64,000 bases of DNA from an uncultured Candidatus Binatia bacterium (lineage in GTDB: Bacteria; Desulfobacterota; Binatia; UBA9968; JAJDTQ01): the NCBI GenBank assembly GCA_965242525.1, contig OZ251459.1, positions 64,001 through 128,000 of the forward strand, written 5' to 3'. Both the position numbers and the translations under genes were made by a program. Shown piece after piece: positions 1,450 to 18,180 of this stretch. Numbering within the stretch: position 1 is the first letter of the stretch; each line of letters starts with the position of its first letter. The notes under the pieces are model-generated. The model was not told the DNA's origin and ran no database searches. It worked only from the letters and a program-made list of their open reading frames with translations.

Positions 1450-1461
1450 TTGCGACCTGAA

Positions 1462-2643
1462 ATGGAACTGATAAGTCGATTCTTCCAAGTCCCGGACCGG
1501 AGTTTCTTTCTGTTCGGTCCCCGCGGGACCGGCAAGTCCACGTGGTTGCGTCACCGGCTGCCCGACGCCTTGCACCTCGACTTGCTGGACCCGGAGTCCC
1601 ATCGCAGCCTGAGCGCCCGTCCCGAGCGCCTCCGGGAACGGCTTGCGGGTTCGCCCGGCAAGACGACGGTGGTCATCCACGAGATACAGCGCGCGCCGGA
1701 GCTGCTCACGGTGGTCCACGCCCTGCTGGAGGAGCCGTCGCCGCCCCGGTTCGTGCTGACCGGGTCCAGCGCCCGCAAGCTCCGCCGCGGCGGCGTGGAC
1801 CTGCTGGGGGGCCGGGCGGTGCAGTGCACGCTGCATCCCTTCATGGCCGCGGAGTTGCCTGCCTTCGACCTGGAGCAGGCGTTGCGCATGGGCCTGTTGC
1901 CCCTGGCGGTGGGCGCGTCCGAACCGGCGGCCGTCCTCGACGCATACGCGAGCCTGTACCTGGACCAGGAGGTACGGGCCGAGGGGATGACCCGCAACGT
2001 CGGCGCGTTCACCCGGTTCCTGGAAGCCGTCAGCTTCTCCCACGGCGCGCAACTCAACGTCGCCGCGGTGGCCCGGGAGTGCCAGGTGGAGCGCAAGGTG
2101 GTGGCCGGGTACGTCGGTATCCTGGAGGACCTGCTGATCGCCTTCCGGCTGCCGGTCTTCCGCAAGCGCGCCAAGCGGGCCACCGCGACCCACGAGAAGC
2201 TCTACCTGTTCGACGCCGGCGTGTTCCGCTCGCTGCGCCCCAGGGGACCCCTCGACCGCCCCGAAGAGATGGACGGGCAGGCCCTGGAAGGGCTGGTGGC
2301 CCAGCATCTGCGGGCCTGGGCCGCCTATTCCCGGCAGGACGCGGGCCTGTTCTTCTGGCGCACCCGCGCCGGCGCCGAGGTGGACTTCGTGGTTTACGGC
2401 GAGTCGGGACTCCAGGCTTTCGAGGTCAAGAACGCCGACAGGGTCCATTCCCGCGACCTGCGGGCGCTCAGGACCTTTCGCGAGGACTACCCCGAAGCGG
2501 AAACCGCCCTGCTCTACCGCGGTCGAGAGCGCCTGCGCATGGACGGGATCTGGTGTCTGCCGGTCGCGGAGTTCCTGTGGCGGATGGCGCCGGACCGGGA
2601 CCTGCTGGATGTCCCTTCCTCCCGCGCCGGAAGATCAGGGTGA
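1462..2643 (+). CDS. AAA_14 ATPase with DUF4143 and C-terminal nuclease-like motif
   Basis: Walker A GPRGTGKS, TGSSA motif, KLYLFDAGV, C-terminal EVDF...FEVK. Walker B reads IHEIQ. ATG at 1462. Confidence 0.85.
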   Translation: MELISRFFQVPDRSFFLFGPRGTGKSTWLRHRLPDALHLDLLDPESHRSLSARPERLRERLAGSPGKTTVVIHEIQRAPELLTVVHALLEEPSPPRFVLTGSSARKLRRGGVDLLGGRAVQCTLHPFMAAELPAFDLEQALRMGLLPLAVGASEPAAVLDAYASLYLDQEVRAEGMTRNVGAFTRFLEAVSFSHGAQLNVAAVARECQVERKVVAGYVGILEDLLIAFRLPVFRKRAKRATATHEKLYLFDAGVFRSLRPRGPLDRPEEMDGQALEGLVAQHLRAWAAYSRQDAGLFFWRTRAGAEVDFVVYGESGLQAFEVKNADRVHSRDLRALRTFREDYPEAETALLYRGRERLRMDGIWCLPVAEFLWRMAPDRDLLDVPSSRAGRSG

Positions 2644-2680: not shown

Positions 2681-5600
2681 TCAACCGGCAGAAACGCCCC
2701 CGAGCGGTCCCACGCCGAGGACTTCCACGAGCTCGGCGACCACGGCCACGGCGTCCTCGTCCTCCTCCGCCAACTCGATGGGGGCGAACTCGCGGTTGAC
2801 GGGTTCGAGCACGATCCTGACGTGCCGCCAGCCGTTTTCGTCCTCGGCCTTCTCGCTGCGATAGCGCTTCACCGTGAAGCGAAGGCCGGTGTCCGGATCG
2901 ACCGCGTCGCGTAGCTGCACGAGCACCACGCGCCCCTGACGGGAGCCGGTCACGGGATGGGCGAACAGGCAGTAGGCGCCGTCGGGTATGGCGGGTTCCA
3001 TGGACCGTCCGACGACCTTCGCCGCGAACATCCCGGGACGCAGCGAGCGGTGTGTGTCGAGTTCCACCCAGTCCCATTCGGGATCGTCGGGTACGGATCG
3101 AGGGTTGCCGAACGCGCCTGCGGCCGCCTGGAGCGGCGCCAGCGGCACGCAAGTCACGTAGCGTGCAGCGGCCGTCGGCGTCACGAGCCGCAGCGTCCGT
3201 TCGTTCGCCGCCGCGGCGTCGTGGAACCAGGAGCGGTCGTCGCGCACGCGGTTGCGGACGTCGAGCATGTGGAGGTAACCGGCCAGGCGCCGGAAGTGCT
3301 GCACCATGGCGTTCTCGTCGTGGAGGTCGTTGGCGGCGACCTCGATCACGTCGTAGCCGTGGTTGCGCAGCCAGTCGCGGATGGCCCGGTCCCTTTCCGC
3401 GGTTTCGGGGTTGCCGTGGAGGGGGCGGCTCAGGCCGTCCAGGTAGATGCACACGCCCTCGTCCGGCTCGTGGTCCTCGGCGCGGTAGATCACGTCCGGC
3501 GTGGTGGTCCCCAGCGTCCGGTCCAGCCGCACCTGTTGGTTGCGAATTCCCTCGCCGAACCCCGCGGCGCGCAGCAGGTGGCGCAGCCGCGTTTCCGCGT
3601 CGTTGACGGGCATGGCGTCGGCCGCGGGCCTTTCCGCGGGTTGCAGCGGCGGGACGGGGTGCTCGAACGCGAGACGCGCTCCCCACGCGTCGAGCCGCTC
3701 ACCGGCGATCCGGCGATGGAGGAGATGGTGGTAATAGGCGTTGCGGAAGTTCTGGAGGCAGTCGATGCAGGAGGACTCGCACGCCCCGGCACAGTTCTCC
3801 ACCACATCCCGGGCCGCTCCCACGACTTCCGCGAACCGCTCGCACAAACGGTCGAGGAGGCCGGAGCCTCCGGGCATGGGGTCCCACAGCATCGCGTCCA
3901 CCTCCGGGCGCTCCACGTGGCCCATCACCAGTATCTGCAAGTCGTCCACGTGCATGTCCAGCACGTGGGTCGCGCCCAGTCGCAACGCCTCCAGCACGCT
4001 GTACCCGGTGGCGGCGTCGTCGCACGCGGGCAGCGAGAAGGCGTCCGCGGTCACGTCGGCGTAGAAGCCGATGTCTTCCGGGGCGCGCCGGCACCTTTCG
4101 GTATGGGACTTGCGGAACTCCTCGCGCTGGCGCTCGGACGAGAACGGCGAGACGCTTTGGCCGCACACCACGCAGACCGGGTAGCCGAACACTCCCCGTT
4201 TCCTGATGGAAGTCGAAGCTCCCACGTTGACGAGCCGCATCCGCACCCCCCGCCGCAACGACATGGGCCGTGTCCCCCAACGGTACGCTTGTCCGCCGCC
4301 GTGCTGGCCCAGCTCGAGTCCATGGACGGCGACGCCGAGTTGGAACCGCAGGTCCTCTTCGTCGGAGATGTGCGACGTGTGGACGAGGTCGGCGTCGCAG
4401 ATGGCCATGGTCCGCAGGGCTTGTCCGTTGAGGGAGGAACTTGCGTCCCCAGAGGCGGGCTTGACGGCTTGCCGTTCCGCGGAAACTTCGTAAACCGGCG
4501 TCTCGGCCTGCTCTTCGCCGAGGTCCCGGTGGAACCGCCGCGCTACGAAACGGTGGCCGTTGGCGTAGATGAGGTTGCCGGGAACGTATTCCCGCAAGGC
4601 CGCGGCAGGGGGTCGAGGCAAGCGGAAGTCCCTGGCGCCGGCGTGCCAGAAGGGGATCTCCGCCCATCCCACCACCGTGCCGACCTCGAGACCGTAACCG
4701 GGCAGGAAACCCTCGGCCGCCAGCACGTTGAAGGTGTTGGAGTCGTCGTGCCCCTCGGCCTGGCTGCGCCGCCGTTCCTGGCCCTTGAGGCGCTTCACGA
4801 ACCTGTCGCAACGGCGGAACAACGCTTCGTCCTCGGGGTCGAGGGCGCCTTGCCGCTCGCGCCGCTCGTCGAGCCGCGTGATCTGGTCCATGGCCCAACG
4901 CAAGCGCCGGCGCAGACGGGAGACGACGCTTTCCAGATGGTCGGCGAACGTGTCCACGTGGCCGCGGAGCGCCGCGGGTTTCGTCACGTCCTCGTCCTCG
5001 TCCGGCCAACCCTGGTCGAAGACCCGCCCCACGTCCGCGGCCAGGTCGGTTGCGTTGTCCCGCACGAGCTCGCGCAGGGCGCCGAAGTCGAACGGCGCGG
5101 TGCGCAGTTCGCCGTCCCGGAACAGGTACGGCTCCACGCGCCCGGGCAGGCAGCCGTCCAGGACGCCGCGGACCGCGTGGCGTTCCGTTTCCGGGCGGTT
5201 CGGGTCGCGGCCGTATCGGTGCAGCGCGCCGATGACGGTAGCGTGGACGTGCTTGGCCACCATGAACTCGTTGCGCAGGTTGAAGGCCGGGGGATCGATC
5301 CTGCCGGCGAGCAGCTTGGCGGGTTCGGCGAAGTAGGCGCGGTCATGGGACACGGGGCGGCAGTAGGTGACGTCCACCGCCATGCGATGGCGGCGTCCCG
5401 CCCGCCCGGTGCGCTGCCAGTAGTTGGCCGGCAGCGGCGGCACGTTGCGCATGAGCACCGCGTCGAGCTGGCCGATGTCGATGCCGAGCTCCAGCGTCGG
5501 GGTGCACACCAGGCAGTTCACCGCGTCGGTTGCGCCCTTGAACAGGTTCTCCAGGCGTTCGCGCTCGTCGTCGGGAACCATGGCCGTGTGCTCTTCCGGG

Positions 5601-8600
5601 CGCAGCATGGCGTAAACCCCGTCCAGCAGTTGCAGGTCGTAGTGGTCGGGGTCTTCCGGCGCCCATTCCAGGACGCCGTCGCAGCGCCAAGCGGGGCAGC
5701 GGTCGTAGGGCAGGTCCCGCGTGGTGGTGCGGCGGCAACTCCGGCAGCGCCGGACGCCCCGGTTGGGGTTCAGTCCCAGCCGGTCCGCGTTCACCTGGTA
5801 AACGCCGCTGACCCGGGGCAACGGGCGCCCCTTGGACCCCTTGAGGCGCACCGGCGACAGCAGCTTGCGTTCCACCAGGAAGGCGAACAGGCTTTCCAGG
5901 AACGACGGGACGGCTTCCCGGGGCACGCCCCACTTGCCGGCCATCTGGCGCAACGTGGTGTCGCCGCCGTCGCTCAGCCATTGGGTGACCAGGTTGGGCT
6001 TCTCGTGCGGTTCCCGGCGCAGCTTGGTGGCGTTGGGGGACAGGAACCCCGGAAGGTAGCCCTGCTGGATTTCCCGGTCCCCTTCCTGCCACATCTTCGT
6101 GAAGATCTCGTACTCCGGGTCGTGCAGGGCGCCCCTGCGCCGCAGGTAGTCGAGCACGCTGGCCACGCCCTCGCGCAGGCGTTCCGGCGCGAGGCGGAGG
6201 TCGTGGGCGTGTTCCTGTATCCACGGCGCGGCAGCGTCGAGGCCCCGGTATTCGACTTTCATCCGTCCCCAGGGTTCGAGGCCCAGGGCCTGTCGAGCCG
6301 ACAGCGTCACCTCTCGCAGTACCTGGAAGCGCAGGTACTTGCGGCGCTCCTGTGCGTGGCGGTCGCCGCCCCCTTCCTGTCGGGCCACCTGCCAGACTTC
6401 CGGGATCAAGGCTCGCGACAGCGTTGCGTCGGCATCCAGCAGGTCGTCGAGGCAGGCGGTGAGGTCGCCCACCGAGCGCGGCTGGGCCTTGATGCCCTCC
6501 GCCATCAGCGCCCGCAGCCGGAAGCGTCGGGCGTGGTCCTTCATCCAGCCGGCCTGGAACGCCGCGTCCTGGCGGTTATCGCAGAACACCAGCAGGCGTT
6601 GGCGTTCGGCGTGGTGCACCATGTCCTGGGTGAGGACGTGGACGTCGGCCACGTTGATGGCGCGCACCGGTCGCGCGGGTTCGCGGTATCGTCCAACGCC
6701 GGAGCGGCCCGCCGCGCTGCACGACAGGCAACTGGCGAGTTGCCCCGGGTTGTCAGCCTTCGAGTGCACCGCGTGCAGTCGGACCGCGGCGCCGGACTTG
6801 CCGCAATGAAGGCAGCGGGAGGCCGGCAGGGCATGGGCGGCGCCGCAGTGGCGGCAGAAGTGGAGCGCCGCGGTGCGGCGGGCGAGCGGCGTTTCGTCGG
6901 GCGCTTCGTCGTCATCGTCGCCGGCGCCGATGAGGCGGTCCGTCAGAACCACCCGCTTGCCCCCGAGGCTCTCTTCCAGCGGTTCCCACCACGAGCCCGC
7001 GGCCCCGGCCTCGCCGCCGCCCGGCCGCTTGCCGGTGAACAGGAAGTCCTTGAGGAACGCCACGTAGTAGTGCTGTCCGCAAGTGGTGCAGGTGGTGACC
7101 GGGAAGTGGGCTTTGCTCTCGCCTGACTCCCGGATCGCGGTTGCGTCCTCCGCGGCAAGCCAGAGCTTCGGGCCGTCCCACGCCTCCGGGAACGATACCA
7201 CGGCGCCGCCGATGCCGCGCACGAACACGTGGGCCACGGGCCGCAACAGGGGTCGGCCCTCGCGGCGCGCCGCGGCCCCAAGGGTCAGCCAGGCCAGGAC
7301 TTCCGCTTCGGTCACCACCCGCCCCAGGCGTTGCCCCAGGGCTTCGGCCAATTCGTCGAGGGCCTTGGGGGTCGTGAGCGCTTCGTTCAGGCGGAAGACC
7401 AGTTCGTTCCGGGACAACGCATCGTACAGGCGCCGGGGCCAGCCTTCCGGCCCGCCGGCCGCATCGCCATCCAGCTCCCGTCCGGACAGCGAGCGGTAGG
7501 CTCCGCCCACGCCGTCGCCCGACGCCTCTTCGTCTTCCACCGCGCGAACGCAGCGGTCGAGGATCCCGGCTGCGTCCCCGTCGGGTCCGGGCGGTACGGA
7601 ACGGGATTCCGCCCACACTTCGGATTCGTAGTCCTCCTCCACGGTGACCACCGCTTCGGAGGCCACGCCGAAGAAACGCGCGGCGAAATGGCGAGCGGCC
7701 TGCGGGTCTTCGCCATCGACGATGGTGGCGGAAGTGGCGACACAGGTGGTGTGGCCGGGGTCGGCGTTGCAGAACGCGCGCAGCCGCCGGATCAGGCAGG
7801 CCGTTTCCGCGCCCAGGGCGCCGGTGAAGGTGTGGGCCTCGTCGAACACGAGGAAGTCCAGCCGCGCCCCGTCGAACAGTTCCACGTCCTGCTGGCGCGT
7901 GAGCAGCAGTTCGAGTTGCTTCACGTTGGTGAGCAGGATCCGCGGTTGCCGGCCCGGGGCGCGCATGACCTCCCGGGAGCAGACCTCTTCCGCGGGATGG
8001 ACCGTCTCGCCCCTGCCTTCCCCCTGCGTCCGTCGGAGTCGGGCTTCGTAGTCGGCCCGTGACGAACCGGGTCCGAGCCGGACGCCGGCCACTTCCGTCT
8101 CCCGCTCCGGCGTCTTGCCCACGTAGATGCCGAAGGGGATGCCCGCGCCCGCTAGCAGCCCGCGCAGGCGCATGAGTTGATCTTCGGCCAGGGCGTTCAT
8201 GGGATAGACGACGACCGCGCTGACCCCGGGCGGCGCGCCGTCGTCCCGCAGGCGCAGGCATTGGCTGACCATGGGGTAGAGGAAGCACTCGGTCTTGCCC
8301 GAGCCGGTGCCGGTGGAGACCAGGGTGGTCCGCCCTTGGACGATGGCGCGGATGGCGCGTTCCTGATGGCTGTACAGGTGGGTGACGCGCCGCGGGATGC
8401 GCTCGCGCAGGTGGGGGTGGAGCAGCCCTTCGTTCACCAGGGCGTCCACCGAGGCGCCTTCCCGGAACGGGCGCGACAGGCTGACGTAAGGCCCCTTGAG
8501 CAGGGGCGAGCGGCGGGTCTCGTCCAGCGACAGCAGCGCCCGCATCTGTCCGTGCAGTCGCGGGTCGGCAAAGGGATAGGCGGTGAGCTGGTAGCGCAGG

Positions 8601-8647
8601 AAGCTCTTGACGACGTTCTCTGTGTAGGCAATGGGGTTCAGCGCCAT
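2681..8647 (-). CDS. Giant YprA/DruE-type SF2 helicase + DUF1998 Zn domain + Vsr/DUF559-like nuclease + S24 (LexA-type) peptidase domain
   Basis: TGTGSGKTE, DEAH, TSAT, TPTLELGIDIG, QRTGRAGRR; several CxxC pairs; DPMPGGSG...CAGACESSCIDCL; TPDVIY...IYLDG...HG; AAAG...GRSMEP...VKRY. GGAGG RBS upstream. Confidence 0.88.
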   Translation of the reverse strand: MALNPIAYTENVVKSFLRYQLTAYPFADPRLHGQMRALLSLDETRRSPLLKGPYVSLSRPFREGASVDALVNEGLLHPHLRERIPRRVTHLYSHQERAIRAIVQGRTTLVSTGTGSGKTECFLYPMVSQCLRLRDDGAPPGVSAVVVYPMNALAEDQLMRLRGLLAGAGIPFGIYVGKTPERETEVAGVRLGPGSSRADYEARLRRTQGEGRGETVHPAEEVCSREVMRAPGRQPRILLTNVKQLELLLTRQQDVELFDGARLDFLVFDEAHTFTGALGAETACLIRRLRAFCNADPGHTTCVATSATIVDGEDPQAARHFAARFFGVASEAVVTVEEDYESEVWAESRSVPPGPDGDAAGILDRCVRAVEDEEASGDGVGGAYRSLSGRELDGDAAGGPEGWPRRLYDALSRNELVFRLNEALTTPKALDELAEALGQRLGRVVTEAEVLAWLTLGAAARREGRPLLRPVAHVFVRGIGGAVVSFPEAWDGPKLWLAAEDATAIRESGESKAHFPVTTCTTCGQHYYVAFLKDFLFTGKRPGGGEAGAAGSWWEPLEESLGGKRVVLTDRLIGAGDDDDEAPDETPLARRTAALHFCRHCGAAHALPASRCLHCGKSGAAVRLHAVHSKADNPGQLASCLSCSAAGRSGVGRYREPARPVRAINVADVHVLTQDMVHHAERQRLLVFCDNRQDAAFQAGWMKDHARRFRLRALMAEGIKAQPRSVGDLTACLDDLLDADATLSRALIPEVWQVARQEGGGDRHAQERRKYLRFQVLREVTLSARQALGLEPWGRMKVEYRGLDAAAPWIQEHAHDLRLAPERLREGVASVLDYLRRRGALHDPEYEIFTKMWQEGDREIQQGYLPGFLSPNATKLRREPHEKPNLVTQWLSDGGDTTLRQMAGKWGVPREAVPSFLESLFAFLVERKLLSPVRLKGSKGRPLPRVSGVYQVNADRLGLNPNRGVRRCRSCRRTTTRDLPYDRCPAWRCDGVLEWAPEDPDHYDLQLLDGVYAMLRPEEHTAMVPDDERERLENLFKGATDAVNCLVCTPTLELGIDIGQLDAVLMRNVPPLPANYWQRTGRAGRRHRMAVDVTYCRPVSHDRAYFAEPAKLLAGRIDPPAFNLRNEFMVAKHVHATVIGALHRYGRDPNRPETERHAVRGVLDGCLPGRVEPYLFRDGELRTAPFDFGALRELVRDNATDLAADVGRVFDQGWPDEDEDVTKPAALRGHVDTFADHLESVVSRLRRRLRWAMDQITRLDERRERQGALDPEDEALFRRCDRFVKRLKGQERRRSQAEGHDDSNTFNVLAAEGFLPGYGLEVGTVVGWAEIPFWHAGARDFRLPRPPAAALREYVPGNLIYANGHRFVARRFHRDLGEEQAETPVYEVSAERQAVKPASGDASSSLNGQALRTMAICDADLVHTSHISDEEDLRFQLGVAVHGLELGQHGGGQAYRWGTRPMSLRRGVRMRLVNVGASTSIRKRGVFGYPVCVVCGQSVSPFSSERQREEFRKSHTERCRRAPEDIGFYADVTADAFSLPACDDAATGYSVLEALRLGATHVLDMHVDDLQILVMGHVERPEVDAMLWDPMPGGSGLLDRLCERFAEVVGAARDVVENCAGACESSCIDCLQNFRNAYYHHLLHRRIAGERLDAWGARLAFEHPVPPLQPAERPAADAMPVNDAETRLRHLLRAAGFGEGIRNQQVRLDRTLGTTTPDVIYRAEDHEPDEGVCIYLDGLSRPLHGNPETAERDRAIRDWLRNHGYDVIEVAANDLHDENAMVQHFRRLAGYLHMLDVRNRVRDDRSWFHDAAAANERTLRLVTPTAAARYVTCVPLAPLQAAAGAFGNPRSVPDDPEWDWVELDTHRSLRPGMFAAKVVGRSMEPAIPDGAYCLFAHPVTGSRQGRVVLVQLRDAVDPDTGLRFTVKRYRSEKAEDENGWRHVRIVLEPVNREFAPIELAEEDEDAVAVVAELVEVLGVGPLGGVSAG

Positions 8648-8731: not shown

Positions 8732-9967
8732 TCACCAGCGCCACAGGGCGCTACAGGGTACGGCGTGCAGCCGCTCGCCGAACGGCACCACCGAACCGCC
8801 TGCGTACAGGACGATGCCGCGGACGAAGCGGTCCCCCGCGGCCTGTGCGAGGTCCCGGAGACCCGTGAAGGCGCGCTCGGAGACCGCGCGAGTGGCCTTC
8901 ACTTCGACCCCGACCACCGAACCGGCTCGGTCCTCCAGCACCACGTCCACCTCCCGTTGGTCGTGGGTCCGGTAGTGGAACAGCCGCGGGCGTCGTCGGC
9001 TCCAGCCGGCCTGCTTGAACAACTCCATGATCACGAAGTTCTCCAACAGGCGGCCCGTCGCCTCGTCCGCGGCGCGCCCGGGCGCGCCGCCGAGGTTGTT
9101 CAGGTGCGCCGCCAAGCCCGTGTCGGTCACCAGCAGCTTCGGCGCCTTGGCCATCCGCTTGCCCACGTTGCGAAACCACGCAGGAAGGGAGTGCGCCAGG
9201 AACGCTCCGGCCAGCAGCGCCAGATAGCGTTTGAGGGTGGTCTGCGGCAGCGCCAGGGTGCGGGCGAGGTCTGCGTGGTTCGCCAGTGTGGCCTGCCGTG
9301 CCGCAACCAGGGTGAGCAGGCGCGGCAGTTCGCCGATCCCCTCGACGTTGGCCAAGTCGCGGACCTCGCGCTGCAGGACCGTCTCCACGTAACTCTCGTA
9401 CCAGGCGCGCCGTCGGTGCACAGTGCGGCGCGTCATCATTTCGGGATAGCCGCCGCGGACCGCCCGCGTGAACAGGTCGGCCTGGGATACCGCGGGAGGC
9501 GGCGTGGACGGCAGGTCCGCGTCGAAGACGGCGTCCACGAAGCCTTCCACCGCGCCTTCCAGTTCTCCTTGGGAGAACGGCCACAAGGTGTCGATCTCGA
9601 TGCGGCCGGCGAGCGCCTGCGACAGGTCGGGGACCACGTTGACCGCGGCCGACCCGGTGAGCAGGAAGCGGCCCGGACGGCGGTCGCGGTCGATGGCCAG
9701 CTTGACGGCGCGGAACAGCGCCGGCACGCGCTGTACCTCGTCGATGACCACGGGGCCGGGTTGACCGGCGATGAACTGGTCCGGGTCCGCGCGCGCCGCA
9801 GCCAGCGTCGCCGCATCATCCAGGGTAAGGTACGAAGCTCGATGCGGACCGTGAGCGATTAGCTGCGCGAGAGTGCTCTTGCCGGACTGCCGCGGCCCCT
9901 GGATGAACACCGCCGGGGTATCCGCCAGCGCCTCCAGGACAACGGTCTCGATATTCCTCCGCTGCAT
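8732..9967 (-). CDS. AAA_14 ATPase with DUF4143 (second, divergent paralog)
   Basis: GPRQSGKS, IDEVQ, LTGSA, GGYP, KLLVTDTGL, EVDVV...VEVK. Confidence 0.88.
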   Translation of the reverse strand: MQRRNIETVVLEALADTPAVFIQGPRQSGKSTLAQLIAHGPHRASYLTLDDAATLAAARADPDQFIAGQPGPVVIDEVQRVPALFRAVKLAIDRDRRPGRFLLTGSAAVNVVPDLSQALAGRIEIDTLWPFSQGELEGAVEGFVDAVFDADLPSTPPPAVSQADLFTRAVRGGYPEMMTRRTVHRRRAWYESYVETVLQREVRDLANVEGIGELPRLLTLVAARQATLANHADLARTLALPQTTLKRYLALLAGAFLAHSLPAWFRNVGKRMAKAPKLLVTDTGLAAHLNNLGGAPGRAADEATGRLLENFVIMELFKQAGWSRRRPRLFHYRTHDQREVDVVLEDRAGSVVGVEVKATRAVSERAFTGLRDLAQAAGDRFVRGIVLYAGGSVVPFGERLHAVPCSALWRW

Positions 9968-10005
9968 GGCTGAATTTTAGCCAGCTAGTGGTTGATTTGC
10001 AACCA
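9967..10005 (-). promoter_or_regulatory. Near-consensus sigma70 promoter (predicted leaderless mRNA) covered by two 17-bp palindromes
   Basis: Minus strand: TTGCAA (10002-9997), 17 bp, TAAAAT (9979-9974), 6 bp, ATG. Boxes TGGCTGAATTTTAGCCA (9967-9983) and TGGTTGATTTGCAACCA (9989-10005). Confidence 0.7.
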
Positions 10006-10084
10006 ACGACGTCTTCACACACGAGAGGATCCGTCCCCGGGACAGATGTTGTGACGCTTGGGCTGGCTGCCTGTGCTGCAAGGT

Positions 10085-10114
10085 TTGCCACAAGACTTTT
10101 CAGTTTGGTATAAA
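10085..10114 (+). promoter_or_regulatory. Sigma70-like promoter of the XRE-ImmA/PIN pair
   Basis: TTGCCA (10085-10090), 18 bp, TATAAA (10109-10114) with an extended -10 TG, in an AT-rich intergenic patch. Confidence 0.6.
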
Positions 10115-10168
10115 ATGAAATCAAGACAAGTTTCGAGTTCGGTCATGTCAAGGATGGAGCAAGGGACG

Positions 10169-11302
10169 ATGGCGGATGAGACCTGCATTGCGGCGAACGT
10201 TGTCCGGCTGCGGCTGGACCGGGGGCTGACGCAGGGGGCTCTTGCGGAGCGGGCCGGGATTTCGCGGGTGGCGCTTGGCCAGATCGAGCGGGGAGCGGCC
10301 GTTCCGCGGGCGCGTACCCTCGCTGACTTGGCGAGAGCGCTGGCAGTCCCGGTGGGAGAGTTGGTCACCCCTGTCCGGCCTCTCGAAAGCGTCCGGTTTC
10401 GCGCCCGGACGCGGGTCCCGGGGCGGGAGCAGATCTTGGCAGTGGTCTCCAAGTGGCTGGGAGCCTATGTCGAGCTGGAAACCGACCTGAACGACCGCTC
10501 TCCGTTCCGCTTCGAGGCCGCTGCAACGGGCGGCGGAAGTCCCTCGGAAGTTGCGCGAGCCGCTCGTCGGGCGGTCGATCTCAGACCGGAGGAACCCGTG
10601 CGGGACATCTGTGGGTTACTGGAGGAAAACGGCGTGAAGCTCCTTCTCCTCGAGACCACTCGCGATTCCTTTTTCGGGCTGAGCGTGGGGAAGGGTGACG
10701 GTGGCCCCGCGGTGGTGGTCAACACTTGGAGTCGGATCTCGGTGGAGCGCTGGATCTTTACCGCCGCGCACGAACTCGGTCACTTGCTGTTGCATCCTTA
10801 CGAGTACCGACGAGACGCCACCGAGATGCGGGCGGAGCCGGAGCGGGGTGCCGACGCCTTCGCGGGTGAGTTCCTGATGCCGGAGACGGCGTTTGCGGAA
10901 GAGTGGGAGGCGACCCGTGGACGCTCCCTGCTGGCGCGTGTCCTCAAGGTCAAGCGGATCTTCCGGGTGAGCTACAAGACCGTGCTCCATCGGTTGGTGG
11001 AGTCGGGGCGGGAGACGTCCGCGGTCTGGCCTACGTTCCAGGGCCAGCACCGCAGCTACTTCGGCCAAACGCTTCGCAAGACCGACGAACCTGAAGCCAT
11101 CAGGAAGGGTGAGTTCGCGTGGAACTGGAGCCGCTCGGGAGAACCTGCCAGCCTCTCCGAGCACGACTTCGTCGAAGATCGGTTGTCACGGCTCGTGAGG
11201 CAGGCAGTCGAGAGTGAACGCATCTCGCTCGGACGCGCCGCCGAAATCCTGGGTCTCACGAGGGAGCGGATGAGAAAGCAGGCAGGTGAGTGGGCCAAGT
11301 AG
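10169..11302 (+). CDS. XRE helix-turn-helix fused to ImmA/IrrE metallopeptidase
   Basis: HTH RGLTQGALAERAGISRVALGQIERG; zinc motif FTAAHELGH; ADAFAGEFLMP; C-terminal ISLGRAAEILGL. Start chosen at ATG 10169. Confidence 0.9.
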   Translation: MADETCIAANVVRLRLDRGLTQGALAERAGISRVALGQIERGAAVPRARTLADLARALAVPVGELVTPVRPLESVRFRARTRVPGREQILAVVSKWLGAYVELETDLNDRSPFRFEAAATGGGSPSEVARAARRAVDLRPEEPVRDICGLLEENGVKLLLLETTRDSFFGLSVGKGDGGPAVVVNTWSRISVERWIFTAAHELGHLLLHPYEYRRDATEMRAEPERGADAFAGEFLMPETAFAEEWEATRGRSLLARVLKVKRIFRVSYKTVLHRLVESGRETSAVWPTFQGQHRSYFGQTLRKTDEPEAIRKGEFAWNWSRSGEPASLSEHDFVEDRLSRLVRQAVESERISLGRAAEILGLTRERMRKQAGEWAK

Positions 11303-11814
11303 GACCAGTGCAGGCCGGGGCCACGGTCTTGCTCGCCGATGCGGACGTGCTCATCGACTACCGGGACTCCGATCTGACCATGCTCAAGCTCGTGGCGCAG
11401 CATGTGGGGAGGGTAGCCGTCATACCGCCCGTGCTCGACGAGGTGCATGGCCTCACCGCGGGACGATGCGCGCGACTCGGCATCGAGGTCGTCGAAGTCG
11501 AGACGGAGCAGATGCTTCAGGCCGCGGAGGTCGGGTCGAGCGTCTCGTTCAACGACCGCCTTTGCATGGTGGTGTGCCGTGGGGAAGGTTGGACATGCGT
11601 CACCAACGACGGCGCCCTCCGACGGCTGTGCAAACGCCACGGTGTCAAGTCACGTTATGGCCTTGGCCTCATGGTGGATCTGGCCGCGGCTGGTGTTCTC
11701 ACGCGAGGCCAGGCAGTGGCGGTTGCCCGCAAGATTCAAGCCTCGAATCCACTGCACATCAATGAACGGGTGATGAAGCGTTTCCTGAACGCTCTGGCCA
11801 AAATCAGCCGATGA
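11290..11814 (+). CDS. PIN-fold ribonuclease (putative toxin partner of the XRE-ImmA protein)
   Basis: LLADADVLID...VLDEV...SFNDRLC...VTNDGALRR acidic pattern; overlaps the 3' end of the ImmA gene. Confidence 0.75.
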   Translation: MGQVGPVQAGATVLLADADVLIDYRDSDLTMLKLVAQHVGRVAVIPPVLDEVHGLTAGRCARLGIEVVEVETEQMLQAAEVGSSVSFNDRLCMVVCRGEGWTCVTNDGALRRLCKRHGVKSRYGLGLMVDLAAAGVLTRGQAVAVARKIQASNPLHINERVMKRFLNALAKISR

Positions 11815-11895
11815 TCCGCGGACTTCCGGGTAAACGCCGTCGTTGGCTCTCTGGCAAGAGGGCTGCGTAGAGCGGCGTCCCTGTTTCGGGCGGCG

Positions 11896-14800
11896 CTACT
11901 CGAACAGTTTCTTCTGTCCGCTTTTCGCGGACGGTTTCGAGTCGTAATCCGGTTCGGGTTCGGCGGCCTTTGGCAGGGGCTCGGTTCCCGGGGCCGGGGC
12001 GTCGCGGCCGCTTCGGCTCCGGTACTCGGCGTCGTCCATGAGCTTGCGGGCGTAGAGGGTGTCCAGGAGCAGGAGGTGGGTCGTCTCGTTGAGATGGCCG
12101 CGGGTGCGGAGGTCGTCCACCATGGTCCAGTAGGGCGCTTCGTACAGGACCTTCCCGACGCGGACTCCGACCAGGAGCGCCACGTAGCCGTGTTCGCCGA
12201 CCAGTTCGCGGACGAAGTCGTCGGTGAGAAGGTCGAGGCAGTCCTCTCCGTCGGTGACGCGCCGCTGTGCCAGATCGACGAGGAGTTGGGCGTAGCCGTG
12301 GACGCCGAGGAGGTTGCGGGCGTGCAGGTGGCATTCCCGCCAGGATTCCTCCGCGCCCTGGGCAAGCTGCCAGTCGTGGAAACGGGAGCCGAGCTGGCTG
12401 GCCACGGGCTGCGGATGCCTGGCGCGCTCGTCGTGCCCGAGGCCGTAGTCGGCGAGGCGGAGGGTTTCCGGGAGCATCCAGCCTTCGCCGTGGTTCTGGG
12501 AGAGGAAGGCGTCGATGCCGCGCTCGCGGTCGCCGCCCGCGGCTTCGACCTTCGCTTGGAGGTCATGGAAGGCGACGAGGGTCAGGACGGTGTGGCGGAG
12601 TTCGGGGTCCTTGTCCTTGTCAACGCGCCAGAATCCCTTGGGATCCAGTTTCCCGGAATGGAATGCACCAGCAATTTCCGATTGTGGGAGGTCGCAGTGC
12701 CGCAGGATGTGGCGCAAGTCTTCCTCAACGAGGCCGAACGCTGTCGAAACCAGCAGGTCCAGGATGATGTTCATCCTCAAGCGTTCACGACCTGTCAAGG
12801 CTGGTCTCATTCGCTCGGTATAGGAAGTGGAAGATGACGACTCGGTTCCTCGCAGGACCGTGGATAGGGGCTGGATATGACGCATTTCGGCAACGCTGCA
12901 TACCGGCAGGGGAGTTTCTTCGATGATGAACCAACTCGTATGCAGCCCCGAGAAACGCACGCGAAGAGAGAAGTCATAGACGAAGGAGTTCAGGATAGTG
13001 CCAAGCGGAAGGCATTGGTCTGCGGAGCAGTTCAGAACTCCGATGGAGTGTCCGCAAGGCACACCGGCTAGTGGTGAAACGATCATCGTCCGAGTATTCG
13101 TCGATGACGTGATGTCCATGAGCGCGATCTTCGGTTTCCGCACCGCGTAGAGGTAGTCGGTACAGTGTGCTCGATCCATCAGGTACTGCGGCTCGATCTG
13201 CTTGCGCTCCCAGGGAATTTCCCGCCAAACGGAACCGCGGCCTTTGCCGCTGACCCAACCCTTCTGGCTGGAATCGAACTGGCCGATCATTCGGCCTTCG
13301 TAGAACGGCAACGCTACGTCCCTGACCCCTCCCTCTTCCCGGGCGTCGTTGCCATCCCCTGACAGAGTAGGTGCGGGCGGGACACCCACGGTCCAAGGGG
13401 GCGTTGCGTACTCGGAGGTAGTTGTAGGTGGGTCCCGGTCCTGAATCCATGCGTCCCCTTCCCGCGACAGCACCACCCCCGCTGGGATGCTTGCCCGTGG
13501 GATTGGCAGCCGGTCATACGGCGGCTGTGCGCAACGCAAGCGCCAGTCGGTACGGGCTGCGTCGCCGGGTTTCAGCAGGTGGCCATGCACGAAACGGGCT
13601 TCGGCTTCGCGGCGTTCCGGGTCGGCGGTGGTGTCGAACAGCCACTCCTCCAACTCGATTTCCGCCTGTTCCGGCTGGGAAGGATCGGCGCCGAGTTCCG
13701 CCCACAGCTCCCCGATCGGCCGCCAGTCGCCGAGCAGCCAGCGGCTGTACTCGTCGGGGCGGTAGCCCTTCGCCTCCCACTGCGGGCGGGGCGGGAAGAG
13801 GCGGGAGTCGCTGGTCATGTTGAAATCGCCTTGAGAATAACGAATGCCCCAGCCGTCCGGGCCATCGTCGCCGAGCAGCACAGCGTTGGCGTAGATCTTC
13901 TCCAGGATCTCCAGGTCGCGCTTCGACTGGATTTCGAAGATGGCGTGGCTCCTAGGGCTGAAGCGCTCGACCTGCGCCCGAGTGTAGGGGATGGTAAGGT
14001 GCTCGGCGCGCTCCCAATCGTCGAGGTTGCGGCGCATGAAGGCGGTGCGGATGGTCTCGGTGGCGGCGCCCTTCTCAACGATGATTGGGTTGAACTTGTA
14101 GCTCCTGTGGATCGGGAAGACCTTGTCGCGGTTCTCGATGCCGAACAGCCATTCCCATCGGCAGTGTCTGAGAAACAGTGTGCGCAGCGCGCCCGTGCCG
14201 AGGTCCGAGTAGAGGCCGGAGGGGACGACGAATCCGAGTCGACCGCCTATGCGAGACAAGGCATGTGCCTGTTCCAAGAACAGCTTGTATGTGTATGCCT
14301 TGCCTTTGCCTCGATGCACGAAAGGATGTGTTGTATCTGCAAAACTGAATGAACGAACTCTGGCCTGTCGCCACCGATCGTGAAATCTACTGTTCTCTCG
14401 GCTGTGAACTATAGTGTATAGTGCAACGTTCTGATTCTCGCCTGTTCCAAGGGGATCGCCGAACGGATTCGCAACATGTTTCATCCAGTTCGAATCATTC
14501 GCAAATCTACTATTGTAGTCGAGCCAACTGCATTCCACAGAGACTTCGTTAAAATAAGCTCTCTGTTTTTCTAACGCTTCCTGTTTTCCATAGGAGCGAT
14601 AGAGCGGATCGATATTTGAAAAGTATTCCTTGGAACTCGGTTGAAGTGTTTCCCACGGCGGATTGCCCAGCATCGCGTCGAAGCCCGATTCCGGCGCCCG
14701 GAACACGTCCGGGAACTCCAGCTCCCAATGGAAGAAGCGCATCTCCGCGGCGACCCGTCGGGCCACGTTCCGGGTCTCGTCCCGCGGTTGGGCGAAGGTC

Positions 14801-17553
14801 GTGGGGAGCGGGGCGCGGTCCAGTTCGTCCGCGGGCCAGAACCAGCAGGCGCACCACAGGTCCATGGCGTTCTTGAGCGAGCGCCAGGCCGTTGAACCCA
14901 GGAAGTCCCGCCGGTAGAGGTGCGCGCGCTCCCGGGCGTCCTGCACCGGCAGGGCGTGCATGTCCGCCAGCACGTTCAGCGCCTCGTCGTGGGCGCGTCC
15001 GGCTTCCGTCAGCAGGTCTTCCCGGAACAGGTCGGCGCCGGCCAGGAAGCGCTTCAGGTCCGGGGTCAGGGTGTCCTTCGTGAACTCCTTGAGGGCCTTG
15101 CCGCGGGCGTCTTTCCCGAAGTGCGTTCCGTTGCCGTGGTTCTTGTCGCCGCCTTCGCGGTTCTTCCACGCCATGACCGGGTAGTGGGCGAACTGGTCGA
15201 ACCACGCGCCGACGAGCGCGTTGCCGCACTTGACCTTGTGGTCCAGGAAACCGAACGGCAGGGTGCGGTCCATGGTCTCGATCCAGAGGGACAGGCGGCA
15301 GAGCTCCACCGCCAGCGGGTCGAGGTCCACCGCGTAAAGGCAGCGTTCCACCACGTGCCGGCGCAGCACCGCCTTGAGACGCGGCTCGAAGCGGTCGTCG
15401 TCGGGGCGGCAGGGGATCAACTCGTCGCTCAGGCCTTCGTCCTGTTCGTCCCGCTTGTCCCGAAGGCCCAGCAGGTGGACCAGGGCCCGGTCGCCGTCCG
15501 GTTCGATGCGTCCGTGGTGTTGCAGCGAGGCGTAGAGCGCGTCGGTGAGGAAACGCAGCGCGGCCAGCGGGAAGCTGCCGGAACCGCACGCCGGGTCGCA
15601 GACCTTCAGGTCGAGGATCCGCTCCGGGAGCTTCGGCGTCCAGTGCGCGGGCGGCGCGTTGGCGTCCGGCGTCCCGTCCTCGTCCACGGGCGGGTCGTAG
15701 GCCAGCGGGCGCAGCGTGCGCTGCACCGTCGGAACGGCCAGGCCGGGACGGGTGTAGAAGCTGCCCGAACCCTTGCGGGTGCCGCCCCATCGCACCAAGT
15801 ACCACTCGCCGGGCAGGACGACCCGGGACACGAGTTGCTTCGCCTTGGCGCCGAGTTGGGCGTCGAACGCGAGTCGGCGCGCCGAGGCGTCCCGGCCTCC
15901 GGCCTTGTGGGGTTTGACCAGGCCCGCTGCCTGCGCCGCCCGTCGCGCCCAGGTCTCCGCCCGGGTGCGGTTGCGTTGCCGCTCGTCGGAGCCGTCCGCG
16001 GTGTCTGCGGTCTCGTCCGGCTCGCCGTCGCGGCCCTCGGAAGATCCGTCGTCGTCTTCCGCCCGTTCCCCGACGGGAGCGTTGGCGGTCTCCGCTCCGT
16101 CGTCCGCCTCCACGCCTTCTTCCGCGGCTTCCGCTTTCGAGTCGCCTGCGAGGTTGGCGAACAGCGCCTTGAGGGCGGCGTCGTCCATGGCTTCCAGGCG
16201 CGAGAGGGGCAGCGCCGGCTGGTCGCCCACCGCCAGGAAGACCACCGGGTCGCCGGCCGGCGCGGTCTTCAACTCGTAGTCCAGCAGCCCTTCGTAGAGG
16301 ACGCCGATGTATTCGGACGAGAGATCGGAAAAGTCCACGGGAACGCGCGCCTGCTTGCTGCTCCGGCCCTGGCGAATGCGGACCGTGGTGCGGGTGAGCA
16401 GGCACAATATCCGGTAAACGTCCCGGTCCGGCATCGTGGTCTCGCGCTCGAAGCACGCGTTCTCGTAAACGGCCAGCGCTTGGGAGAGGCCGTCCGTTTC
16501 GCCCGCGGCCTCGCTCGGGGCGAACAGTTCGCCGCCGTAATCCTTCACCGGCAGGTCCGGGAAATGGGACCCCTGCCGCACGAGCCGGAACAGCGCCAGG
16601 ACCCGCGGCCAAGCGCCGTAGCTCTCGGCCAAGGCGCCGGGGTGGAGGGCGTCGCGTTCCAGCCGTTCGAGCAGGCCGTTCAGGCCGTAGCTTTCGTGGT
16701 AGAGGGCGTTGTCCCGGGGCAGCAGGTCGCGGGACTCCGCGAACAGGACCACCACCAGCCGCATGGCCACCCGGCAGGCTGCGCGGTAGATGTCCGCGGG
16801 AGCCGCCGCGGCGCACCGCTCCTTCAGCGCGTCGCCGTGGCCCGAGATCAGTACTTCCACCGCTTTGCGCACCCGCTCGCCAAGCACCTCGGACAGTTCC
16901 GCCTGTCCCTTGCGGGTGTCGCGGACGGCTTGCAGGAGCGGCGTCGGGGCGTCTTCGACCGCGGGAGTCCAGAGTTCCGGGCACAGCAGAGCGCGCAACG
17001 CCGTTACCTGCGGGGCGAGCTCGCCTTCCTCGAACCACAGGTCCAGGTCCCATTCGCACCACGCGTCGTAGTCCAGTCCGGCGAACAGCAGCCGCCACTG
17101 GCGTCCGTTGGTCACCAACGCGAGATGCTCGTTGCCGGCGCGGAGCCAGCCGAGCACCCGGCTGACCACGAGGCGGCTCCTGCCGATGCCCAGGCGTTTC
17201 TCGCCGTCCAGGAACACCGGCAGCCGCCCGCCGCGCCGGCCCTCCCACAGATGGCGGGGCTTGACCGTCTCTCCCGTAACGGCGCGTCGTCCCCACTCCG
17301 GCGCCACCCGGCTGCCGCGGGACCAGGCGCCGGTGGAGGCGTCCAGCCCGCAGACCCGTTCCAGCACGAAGGCGACGAACTCCGAGGCGTCGCCTTCGCC
17401 GTTCAGCAACGCTCCGGCGCGCTGGCGCAACTGGCCCTCGACATACTCGTGGAGCCGCGGGACGCCCCGGGAAAGCGCCTGCAACCGCGCGCTGTCCAGC
17501 AGCAGGCCCCCATGGCGCAGGTCTCCCCAGCAGTCGGTCAGGGTGTGGTCCAT
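11896..17553 (-). CDS. Large N6-adenine DNA methyltransferase (DrmMI / Type IIG Eco57I-like)
   Basis: IGVLYEGLL, RKGSGSFYT, motif I DPACGSGSF, FHWELEFPDVF, motif IV GFDAMLGNPPW, N-terminal VTNGRQWRL. Confidence 0.92.
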   Translation of the reverse strand: MDHTLTDCWGDLRHGGLLLDSARLQALSRGVPRLHEYVEGQLRQRAGALLNGEGDASEFVAFVLERVCGLDASTGAWSRGSRVAPEWGRRAVTGETVKPRHLWEGRRGGRLPVFLDGEKRLGIGRSRLVVSRVLGWLRAGNEHLALVTNGRQWRLLFAGLDYDAWCEWDLDLWFEEGELAPQVTALRALLCPELWTPAVEDAPTPLLQAVRDTRKGQAELSEVLGERVRKAVEVLISGHGDALKERCAAAAPADIYRAACRVAMRLVVVLFAESRDLLPRDNALYHESYGLNGLLERLERDALHPGALAESYGAWPRVLALFRLVRQGSHFPDLPVKDYGGELFAPSEAAGETDGLSQALAVYENACFERETTMPDRDVYRILCLLTRTTVRIRQGRSSKQARVPVDFSDLSSEYIGVLYEGLLDYELKTAPAGDPVVFLAVGDQPALPLSRLEAMDDAALKALFANLAGDSKAEAAEEGVEADDGAETANAPVGERAEDDDGSSEGRDGEPDETADTADGSDERQRNRTRAETWARRAAQAAGLVKPHKAGGRDASARRLAFDAQLGAKAKQLVSRVVLPGEWYLVRWGGTRKGSGSFYTRPGLAVPTVQRTLRPLAYDPPVDEDGTPDANAPPAHWTPKLPERILDLKVCDPACGSGSFPLAALRFLTDALYASLQHHGRIEPDGDRALVHLLGLRDKRDEQDEGLSDELIPCRPDDDRFEPRLKAVLRRHVVERCLYAVDLDPLAVELCRLSLWIETMDRTLPFGFLDHKVKCGNALVGAWFDQFAHYPVMAWKNREGGDKNHGNGTHFGKDARGKALKEFTKDTLTPDLKRFLAGADLFREDLLTEAGRAHDEALNVLADMHALPVQDARERAHLYRRDFLGSTAWRSLKNAMDLWCACWFWPADELDRAPLPTTFAQPRDETRNVARRVAAEMRFFHWELEFPDVFRAPESGFDAMLGNPPWETLQPSSKEYFSNIDPLYRSYGKQEALEKQRAYFNEVSVECSWLDYNSRFANDSNWMKHVANPFGDPLGTGENQNVALYTIVHSRENSRFHDRWRQARVRSFSFADTTHPFVHRGKGKAYTYKLFLEQAHALSRIGGRLGFVVPSGLYSDLGTGALRTLFLRHCRWEWLFGIENRDKVFPIHRSYKFNPIIVEKGAATETIRTAFMRRNLDDWERAEHLTIPYTRAQVERFSPRSHAIFEIQSKRDLEILEKIYANAVLLGDDGPDGWGIRYSQGDFNMTSDSRLFPPRPQWEAKGYRPDEYSRWLLGDWRPIGELWAELGADPSQPEQAEIELEEWLFDTTADPERREAEARFVHGHLLKPGDAARTDWRLRCAQPPYDRLPIPRASIPAGVVLSREGDAWIQDRDPPTTTSEYATPPWTVGVPPAPTLSGDGNDAREEGGVRDVALPFYEGRMIGQFDSSQKGWVSGKGRGSVWREIPWERKQIEPQYLMDRAHCTDYLYAVRKPKIALMDITSSTNTRTMIVSPLAGVPCGHSIGVLNCSADQCLPLGTILNSFVYDFSLRVRFSGLHTSWFIIEETPLPVCSVAEMRHIQPLSTVLRGTESSSSTSYTERMRPALTGRERLRMNIILDLLVSTAFGLVEEDLRHILRHCDLPQSEIAGAFHSGKLDPKGFWRVDKDKDPELRHTVLTLVAFHDLQAKVEAAGGDRERGIDAFLSQNHGEGWMLPETLRLADYGLGHDERARHPQPVASQLGSRFHDWQLAQGAEESWRECHLHARNLLGVHGYAQLLVDLAQRRVTDGEDCLDLLTDDFVRELVGEHGYVALLVGVRVGKVLYEAPYWTMVDDLRTRGHLNETTHLLLLDTLYARKLMDDAEYRSRSGRDAPAPGTEPLPKAAEPEPDYDSKPSAKSGQKKLFE

Positions 17554-17731: not shown

Positions 17732-18112
17732 TCACAGGACGCCACCCAGATCGAATGCGTCGATCTGCCGCATTATGCCGTCCATCGTATCGCGCCCTGT
17801 CACCCTCGAAACGGGCGCGTCAGGCCCTCGACGGGCGAAAATCACGTACTGGATCAAGCGGTCGTCGAGGAATTGAAGTCCGATGTGCGCGTCGTTCCCA
17901 TCGTTCCAGACAGCACGAAGATTTCCGTTTTCCAGCAGGACAAGGCGTCCGCGTCTCGTAAACGGGTTCTTCTTCAGAAAGTTCCAAAAGGCCGTCTCGG
18001 ATGCCTCACTGAGTGAGTACCCTTCGAGTTCGGCCTGCTCTTTCAGGACGTTGATCCGGCTTTCGTACAGGTTGTGACGCTCCCCTCCCACGCGAAGAAC
18101 TCCTATTCCCAT
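17732..18112 (-). CDS. Hypothetical protein (126 aa) between the helicase and methyltransferase genes
   Basis: Lower-GC, globular-looking frame from ATG 18112; the ORF track's longer N-terminus overlaps the SNF2 gene. Confidence 0.55.
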   Translation of the reverse strand: MGIGVLRVGGERHNLYESRINVLKEQAELEGYSLSEASETAFWNFLKKNPFTRRGRLVLLENGNLRAVWNDGNDAHIGLQFLDDRLIQYVIFARRGPDAPVSRVTGRDTMDGIMRQIDAFDLGGVL

Positions 18113-18180
18113 CCCGCCAAAGTCCCGACTTGACCTCAAGCAGCCGGACCGCCCCGTTGACTGTCCCGACGAGGCGCGGG

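Follow-up and report, generated by a model that had tools for sequence, protein, structure and literature searches.

The question raised by the locus

Only for a few Type I restriction enzymes is it understood how a defence nuclease is kept from killing the cell that makes it while the chromosome is being repaired, and in these the control acts in trans. A gene in a 64,000-nucleotide stretch of contig OZ251459.1 (positions 64,001–128,000, assembly GCA_965242525.1) from an uncultured Candidatus Binatia bacterium, hereafter called the window, encodes a DruE-like defence helicase that ends in a LexA-type tail, and so raises the question of what such a tail does and in which direction it would switch the enzyme. 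The initial annotation of this DNA had recognised a LexA-type self-cleavage module at 2700–3170 and had proposed that the helicase-nuclease is dimerised or held inactive by it until RecA filaments on single-stranded DNA (ssDNA) switch it on. The analysis described here upholds the module and argues for the other direction. The favoured reading, to which a probability of about 0.45 is given, is that damage-triggered self-cleavage is a cargo-independent off-switch that exposes an ssrA-like ...AAA end, amounting to a built-in form of restriction alleviation.

The gene and the parts of its product that are needed for the argument are as follows.

2681–8647 (stop codon included), minus strand: tail-bearing DruE-like helicase gene (P0001), a single open reading frame (ORF) of 1988 amino acids (aa)
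8105–8371, minus strand: DEAD/DEAH helicase motor, first lobe, residues 93–181 as the best stretch (Pfam PF00270, E 8.9e-21)
5390–5578, minus strand: Helicase_C, second lobe, residues 1024–1086 (Pfam PF00271, E 1.1e-11)
3755–3991, minus strand: MrfA Zn-binding domain MZB (formerly DUF1998), residues 1553–1631 (PF09369, 36.9 bits against a cut-off of 24.2)
3278–3610, minus strand: putative DUF559/MTES_1575-like nuclease domain of tentative identity, residues 1680–1790 approximately
3224–3238, minus strand: D-R-S-W-F, residues 1804–1808, the end point of natural tail-less relatives
2684–3223, minus strand: add-on module, linker plus S24 tail, residues 1809–1988
3107–3148, minus strand: cleavage-site motif VPLAPLQAAAGAFG, residues 1834–1847, aligned to the AAG site of LexA
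2735–3040, minus strand: Peptidase_S24 catalytic core, residues 1870–1971 (PF00717 profile positions 32–113 of 116)
2993–3010, minus strand: GRSMEP, residues 1880–1885, with the predicted nucleophile Ser1882 (codon tcc at 3002–3004)
2861–2875, minus strand: TVKRY, residues 1925–1929, with the predicted general base Lys1927 (codon aag at 2867–2869)

The predicted scissile bond joins Ala1843 to Gly1844, whose codons are at 3119–3121 and 3116–3118, respectively. The motif strings that the initial annotation had quoted are all present in the minus-strand translation of 2681–8647 and lie within 2700–3170. Two plus-strand ORFs that overlap this interval, 2609–2914 and 2957–7126, are taken as shadow frames of the 70% GC helicase gene.

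Evidence for a LexA-type S24 domain

Peptidase_S24 is matched in the whole 1988-aa protein at 27.4 bits (E 2.9e-6), above the curated cut-off of 23.3, and the last 189 residues by themselves score 33.0 bits (E 5.5e-8) against PF00717. The same Pfam family is matched in all 13 aligned members of the helicase family. A search of the PDB with a profile built from the tail and 54 relatives (alignment A1) returned 22 sequences at E<=1, of which 14 are LexA, four are UmuD and four are lambda cI, and the Ser and Lys residues of the tail align to those of Mycobacterium tuberculosis LexA (6a2r). The profile is needed for this result, as a single-sequence PDB search with the tail gave two chance-level matches only.

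To examine the register of the alignment, 13 LexA proteins were taken from genomes of the same phylum, all of them genuine in that they possess the LexA DNA-binding domain. HHalign of A1 against these proteins gives a probability of 98.35% with an E of 1e-14 over 125 columns, placing AAG of the tail on AAG of LexA, GRSM on GxSM and TVKRY on TLKHY; the Ala-Gly pair, the Ser and the Lys are invariant in this LexA set. The Gly-to-Ser spacing is 38 residues in the tail compared with 34 in LexA, and the Ser-to-Lys spacing is 45 compared with 37. Hence the scissile Ala-Gly bond, the Ser and the Lys, the three elements on which the initial annotation had relied, are all present and aligned with those of LexA, and the LexA-type S24 module at the helicase C-terminus is confirmed by both the Pfam score and the profile alignment, with the site and the dyad in register. 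On this sequence evidence the tail is very probably a functional self-cleaving S24 module.

Two further S24 genes are found in the same genome. One is a helix-turn-helix (HTH)-S24 repressor-like ORF of 226 aa (C1:3519117–3519797, minus strand), and the other is an S24-like ORF of 139 aa without the catalytic serine (C1:3123079–3123498, minus strand).

Conservation of the predicted cleavage site and catalytic dyad

Conservation was counted over 150 tail representatives plus the query, using the rows that cover each column; the representatives are at most 50% identical and carry differing cargos. The residue before the predicted cut (P1) is Ala in 129 of 132 tails and Ala or Cys in 131, P1' is Gly in 129, P2 is Ala in 131, and P3 is Ala, Val, Ile or Leu in 129. 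The Ser is kept in 146/147 representatives and the Lys in 147/148, and the site, the Ser and the Lys occur together in 124/128. Among 121 close relatives, A1843 is kept in 120, G1844 in 117, Ser1882 in all 121 and Lys1927 in 120. Since the site, Ser and Lys are kept jointly in 124/128 divergent representatives, selection appears to act on cleavage, and a purely structural role would not be expected to keep the scissile bond and the dyad together across such different cargos.

In LexA, cI and UmuD the S24 domain forms dimers and binds in the groove of the RecA filament, and a double-strand break requires two active sites in the case of many nucleases. Both facts count in favour of a tail that does not cleave at all, acting as a dimerisation domain or as a docking handle that binds the RecA filament and thereby recruits the enzyme to ssDNA or keeps it away from it. 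Such a role is very doubtful, as it leaves unexplained why the Ala-Gly bond, the Ser and the Lys have been kept together so widely.

The P2 position differs between the tails and LexA. Ala at P2 is nearly constant in the tails, whereas the 13 same-phylum LexA proteins have Ala in eight, Pro in four and Ser in one. Small as this LexA sample is, the difference fits an extra constraint on the tails for an -AA end at the predicted cut.

The helicase and its optional tail

The highest-ranking PADLOC matches to the 1988-aa protein are DruE models, namely DruE3 (E 2.6e-99) and DruE1 (E 1e-97), both over partial stretches of the profiles, and the protein scores 332 bits on DruE compared with 50.5 bits on the best DrmA model. 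The nearest solved chains to a 13-sequence family profile are 9tu7_Y (E 3.1e-85) and 9wae_A (E 4.5e-48), followed by Bacillus subtilis YprA/MrfA (6znp). Both 9tu7_Y and 9wae_A are helicases of about 2000 aa, and we infer that they are DruE, although their entry names do not say so.

The initial annotation had a nuclease domain precede the tail. Such a domain between MZB and the tail is plausible: residues P1717, D1718, D1737, G1738, D1753 and R1757, acidic ones among them, are invariant in the family alignment (A2), and one of the 13 aligned family members (P0218, the most distant) matches MTES_1575 in the pre-tail region at 28.8 bits (E 1.3e-6), below the cut-off of 38.2, and also matches DUF559 there (E 1.3e-3). 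No Pfam nuclease family is matched in residues 1640–1800 of the window protein itself, and so this part of the earlier description stands less firmly than the tail.

A search with the core of the helicase only (residues 1300–1790) retrieved at least 1533 clusters, and the presence of the tail was scored in the best 120 of these core relatives, which are 67–98% identical to the window protein in the core. The tail is present in 86 and missing from 34. All but one of the 34 tail-less relatives (33/34) end 0–12 residues past the W-F pair at 1807–1808, and a relative that is 52% identical, encoded at locus L016, is tail-less as well. A tree of the core requires at least four changes of tail state, three of which are forced by well-supported branches, compared with a mean of about 30 when the labels are shuffled. 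The linker between core and tail varies in length, for example between P0064 and P0073, and some relatives carry long low-complexity inserts in it. These comparisons mark the tail as a separate accessory on a linker, one that close relatives have acquired or lost on several occasions.

The remaining one of the 34, P0272 (1837 aa), is a close relative within a tailed clade that ends inside the cleavage motif (...VPLIPLHAARR) and looks like a recent truncation.

The end points of the tail-less relatives bear on the model of the initial annotation. In that model the tail would lock the helicase-nuclease in an inactive form, for example a dimer, and RecA filaments, formed on phage ssDNA or on replication intermediates, would trigger cleavage and release the active enzyme. 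In its favour, the cleaved product, residues 1–1843, would be close to those relatives that naturally lack the tail and end near residue 1808. The distribution of the tail over other enzymes, described below, makes this pro-enzyme switch the less likely of the two directions, but it is a serious rival to the off-switch.

Distribution of the tail over other enzymes

In a set of 1.84 billion representative proteins, the last 189 aa matched 1799 clusters at E<=1e-3, of which 1058 reach E<=1e-10. The cargos were surveyed with Pfam in 58 of the best 150 tail representatives, namely those of at least 300 aa, many of which are metagenomic fragments. Of these 58, 11 are Type ISP enzymes, five are DruE-like, four are HsdR-like and four contain HNH; IIG or N6-methyltransferase, PLD, AlbA_2 and other ResIII helicases account for two each, and LlaJI, McrBC, SLFN-g3 helicase and UvrD for one each, while 22 have no other Pfam domain. 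Because so many of these representatives are fragments, the survey was repeated on 15 tailed ORFs from whole species-representative genomes of two phyla, and these comprise four full-length HsdR proteins, four SLFN-g3 helicases, two Type ISP enzymes, two ResIII helicases, one IIG enzyme, one MZB protein and one ORF without another domain. An N6_Mtase gene is located 3–5 kb upstream on the same strand in three of the four whole-genome tailed HsdR genes. The tail is thus found mainly on restriction-type, DNA-translocating enzymes. Neither this sharing across many enzyme classes nor the optional nature of the tail within the helicase family had been noticed in the initial annotation.

Three of the cargos contain a partial second match to the tail profile (positions ~84–137, DPETG...TVKRY...W) in the middle of the protein, at residues 768–813 of L078, 760–802 of L082 and 341–367 of L094; two of them are HsdR and one is an SLFN-type helicase.

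The genome that carries the window encodes a second tailed enzyme 2.4 Mb away (L014/L004; C1:2421060–2428106, plus strand). It is a Type ISP-like open frame of 2348 aa that starts with a PLD-like region, contains an SNF2 motor and a methyltransferase and has a Type ISP-like end, and its tail, VPLIPLQVAAG...GKSMEP...TVKRY, is 58% identical to that of the window protein. The tail is found in 8/301 genomes sampled from the phylum of the window and in 20/301 sampled from the phylum of locus L015, one of the loci compared below, and six of the latter 20 carry at least two copies. Counted without regard to relatedness or genome size, this number of genomes with multiple tailed genes suggests an excess over independent gain. 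Genomes G301, G332, G409, G451, G499 and G563 hold two or three tailed genes, which are distant from one another where they lie on one chromosome; in G409 both tail matches are on one short contig.

Among mobile elements, one of 72,556 plasmid records and none of 50,697 phage records contains the tail, and Pfam finds no HTH or other DNA-binding repressor domain in any of the 58 tail representatives. An origin of the tail as a phage-repressor remnant has been rejected on these two null results.

The range of cargos is what turns the argument away from the pro-enzyme switch. The same tail is present on HsdR, Type ISP and IIG enzymes in ordinary restriction-modification (R-M) contexts. Tailed R-M enzymes must cut incoming DNA before it becomes modified, and the tail-less forms need no activator. 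It is also hard to picture how one tail could inhibit more than 10 unrelated cargos generically through variable linkers. Moreover, RecA filaments also form on damaged host DNA, and so the enzyme would be activated when the cell is most vulnerable. The direction in which the initial annotation had the switch work, from held inactive to switched on, is therefore not favoured, because classical restriction enzymes, among them Type I HsdR in hsdM-linked operons, carry the same tail on linkers of variable length.

Self-cleavage as a proposed off-switch

If the off-switch is correct, the cut between Ala1843 and Gly1844 would be triggered by a signal of DNA damage or ssDNA, the simplest candidate being the filament of RecA on ssDNA that also triggers LexA. 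The cut would release the S24 domain of 145 aa and leave a helicase of 1843 aa. The new C-terminus, ...PLQAAA, would be akin to the end of the ssrA tag of the same genome, ...YALAA, and would act as a latent ClpXP degron, in the way that the ends of the N-terminal LexA and IrvR fragments do. Any dimerisation mediated by the S24 domain would also be lost on cleavage. The outcome would be that a DNA-translocating nuclease is temporarily silenced while repair intermediates and unmodified sites are present on the chromosome.

The steps of this scheme have precedents in the literature. Cleavage of LexA exposes latent ClpX signals (PMC10584840), and C-degrons lie directly beside the cleavage site in LexA-like proteins (PMC5742171). 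When its DNA has been damaged, Escherichia coli clears HsdR through ClpXP, and Pseudomonas aeruginosa does so through Lon-like proteases (PMC4231737; further sources are PMC12707154 and 10.1101/2024.10.21.619520).

Four considerations favour the off-switch. Restriction enzymes with the tail must act at once on incoming DNA and need no activator, and HsdR, itself a tailed cargo, is proteolytically silenced after DNA damage. Nearly all tails have Ala at P2, a position that is variable in same-phylum LexA. A linked methyltransferase is the commonest neighbour of the helicase gene studied here. Finally, since the cargos are varied and the linkers variable, a mechanism independent of the cargo is needed, and exposure of a C-terminal degron would be such a mechanism. 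These considerations lead to a broader proposal, which is put forward tentatively and at somewhat less than even odds, that the tail is a portable cassette for self-destruction on damage, in which a RecA-ssDNA-triggered self-cut, the resulting ...AAA end and removal by ClpXP would bring about alleviation in cis for at least 10 enzyme classes. The classes concerned are HsdR, Type ISP, IIG, DruE-like, PLD, HNH, McrBC, LlaJI, Schlafen-type helicases and UvrD-like enzymes.

Several points weigh against the off-switch. The tail-less relatives end 35–47 residues upstream of the predicted cut, so that the cleaved product 1–1843 would resemble intact, presumably active tail-less enzymes, and unless its new end is a degron, this resemblance fits activation at least as well. 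Canonical DruE is reported to be inhibited by dimerisation and to respond to ssDNA (10.64898/2026.05.13.724313, 10.64898/2026.05.13.724758), and the Druantia III enzyme is reported to be primed by DruH and triggered by ssDNA, which also speaks for the pro-enzyme switch. A divergent upstream gene for an HTH and Peptidase_M78 protein, a regulator candidate that likewise counts for the pro-enzyme switch, would pair more naturally with switching on. Alleviation of EcoKI restriction does not need SOS induction (PMC11109961). Some cargos, namely McrBC, AlbA_2 and SLFN-type helicases, are not classical methylation-guided enzymes. Finally, two points concern the trigger: at least one LexA-like protein cleaves itself independently of RecA (PMC7101444), and no match to the LexA DNA-binding domain is found in the genome that carries the window, compared with matches in 32/61 sampled genomes of the same phylum.

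The last two points also count for an alternative in which self-cleavage does occur and is triggered by something other than the RecA filament, for example a phage protein or another stress signal, or in which slow constitutive autolysis sets the lifetime of the enzyme. The conserved insertions that are specific to the tail relative to LexA, D-P-[DE]-T-G and G-W-R-H, could be read in the same way. The genome, which is 98.96% complete, nevertheless encodes RecA (464 bits), and the core of the tail aligns with the RecA-responsive LexA, UmuD and cI; nor do the loci compared contain a candidate partner gene conserved beside tailed genes. A trigger other than the RecA filament is accordingly regarded as improbable. 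The same genome contains the ClpX zinc finger and an ssrA tag of the sequence ADEQDYALAA.

Genomic neighbourhood of the tailed gene

The genes around the helicase gene that bear on its role are the following.

8732–9967, minus strand: AAA_14 plus DUF4143 ATPase (PADLOC candidate PDC-S01), 85 bp upstream of the helicase gene
1450–2643, plus strand: second AAA_14 plus DUF4143 gene (PDC-S01), converging on the 3' end of the helicase gene
10058–11302, plus strand: HTH_3 plus Peptidase_M78 protein (ImmA/IrrE-type, PADLOC RmrA-like), a regulator candidate, divergent from the AAA/helicase pair
11896–17553, minus strand: Type IIG/DrmMI-like methyltransferase-restriction protein, 1885 aa (PADLOC REase_MTase_IIG 1387 bits, DrmMI 393.7 bits)
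18181–21507, minus strand: DrmD-like SNF2 helicase, 1108 aa (PADLOC DrmD 630.8 bits)

Eight loci with a DruE-like gene were compared, namely the window, L015, L016, L017, L054, L055, L056 and L057. The most recurrent neighbour of the DruE-like gene among them is the IIG/DrmMI-like gene, a homologue of which lies upstream on the same strand in five of the eight (the window, L016 as a piece only, L055, L056 and L057). DrmD is found in two (the window and, at 60% identity, L057), with a weak match in L017. The interval between the methyltransferase and the helicase differs from locus to locus, holding DUF3800 in L016, a KAP NTPase, NACHT-LRR and AlbA_2/HATPase_c_4 in L054, and AbiEii in L057. The helicase gene thus forms part of a module that resembles DISARM or Druantia, includes a linked methyltransferase and lies within a defence island. 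Because the gene lies downstream of a DrmMI/IIG-like methyltransferase gene in 5/8 loci, methylation-based discrimination between self and non-self is plausible.

The HTH-M78 gene is located near the DruE-like gene in three of the eight loci, the window and L015 and L054, whose orthologues are 74–76% identical to it. M78 proteases of the ImmA/IrrE/CapP type have a damage-sensing role, and the HTH-M78 gene may regulate the operon. As a dedicated partner of the tail it has been rejected, since it is present in 3/8 loci only and a paralogue of 75% identity in the same genome (C1:2507962–2509098) lies about 80 kb from the second tailed gene and not adjacent to it. At the C-terminus, the HTH-M78 protein has a weak match to UPF0175.

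The upstream AAA_14/DUF4143 gene has been rejected as a dedicated partner in the same way, as it is absent from the seven other loci compared, where its slot is filled by different genes. A promoter-like site precedes it at 9974–10002 on the minus strand, but one such site was found where 0.3 would be expected, so that the signal is weak. Each of the two flanking AAA_14/DUF4143 ATPases has a further paralogue in the same genome, at 53% and 42% identity. No partner gene conserved beside tailed genes was found in the loci compared. PADLOC matches none of the eight neighbouring ORFs scanned to a Dru partner gene (DruH, DruA–D or DruM/F/G), and since DruH is missing from this set, the tail could replace a sensor, which is a further point for the pro-enzyme switch.

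Three minus-strand ORFs beside the DrmD-like gene, 17732–18601, 21504–22388 and 21844–23643, have no Pfam or PADLOC match, and some of them may be shadow frames. The first has a partial paralogue in the same genome (C1:3198171–3198512, 49%). Over the IIG/DrmMI-like gene (10001–16000 of the window) the G+C content is 0.64, down from about 0.70, and at 26001–30000 it falls to 0.575–0.63; these dips suggest separately acquired pieces.

Novelty and meaning

The architecture of the protein is already present in automatic annotation, as precomputed Pfam domains and as the name 'ATP-dependent helicase YprA (DUF1998 family)/SOS-response transcriptional repressor LexA'. Literature searches, full-text ones among them, brought up no publication in which such a tail on a restriction or defence enzyme is described or interpreted. 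The parts of four Druantia III preprints reached by term look-up (10.64898/2026.05.12.722862, 10.64898/2026.05.13.724758, 10.64898/2026.05.13.724313 and 10.64898/2026.05.12.724681) describe no S24 or LexA-like domain in DruE; the terms LexA, S24 and peptidase are all missing from three of them, and LexA is mentioned by the fourth only for an SOS-inhibitor assay. A look-up of the terms S24, LexA and self-cleavage in a 2025 review of R-M biology likewise gave no occurrence. The tail would be a known self-cleaving switch in a new role.

If the off-switch is true, the tail on HsdR, Type ISP, IIG, DruE-like and other enzymes would connect RecA/SOS sensing with restriction directly, from within the enzyme itself. 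If the activation model is true instead, the tail would be a new means of sensing infection through RecA filaments. Either way it would be a natural, transferable module for damage-responsive control of proteins, and a weakness or a trigger open to exploitation by phages is to be expected.

Comparison with known systems

The tail shares with LexA, UmuD and lambda cI (PF00717) a homologous catalytic core, in which the Ala-Gly site, the Ser of GxSM and the Lys of VK[RH] are in register. As in LexA and cI, the S24 domain is C-terminal, so that cleavage would part the N-terminal cargo from the tail. Unlike in LexA and cI, the cargo in the window is not a DNA-binding domain but a DEAD helicase of 1800 aa with MZB, and unlike LexA, the tail has the extra conserved DP[DE]TG and GWRH segments and longer spacings between the catalytic residues.

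The window protein resembles DruE of Druantia in its match to the DruE profiles and in its combination of a DEAD motor with MZB/DUF1998. According to the Druantia III preprints, published type III DruE has C-terminal PLD nuclease domains and works with DruH. The window protein differs from DruE in having a DUF559-like region and the S24 tail instead. Pfam scans of the window protein and of its 13 relatives detect no PLD family, which again sets it apart from type III DruE.

DISARM class 1 consists of DrmD, DrmMI, DrmA, DrmB and DrmC. The locus in the window is similar to it in that genes for a DrmD-like SNF2 helicase and a DrmMI/IIG-like methyltransferase lie upstream on the same strand, and in that a helicase together with DUF1998 corresponds to the combination of DrmA and DrmB. 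It differs from DISARM class 1 in the fusion of helicase and DUF1998 in one polypeptide, with no separate DrmA and DrmB genes, in the lack of a PLD-type DrmC gene among the scanned neighbours, and in the unrelated genes that lie between the methyltransferase and the helicase.

The proposed purpose is the same as that of Type I restriction alleviation, the proteolytic removal of a translocating restriction subunit on an unmodified or damaged chromosome, and HsdR is itself among the tailed cargos. In the known Type I alleviation, which involves no S24 domain, the signal is read in trans by a protease that recognises the stalled or translocating enzyme, whereas the window enzyme would carry its own sensor.

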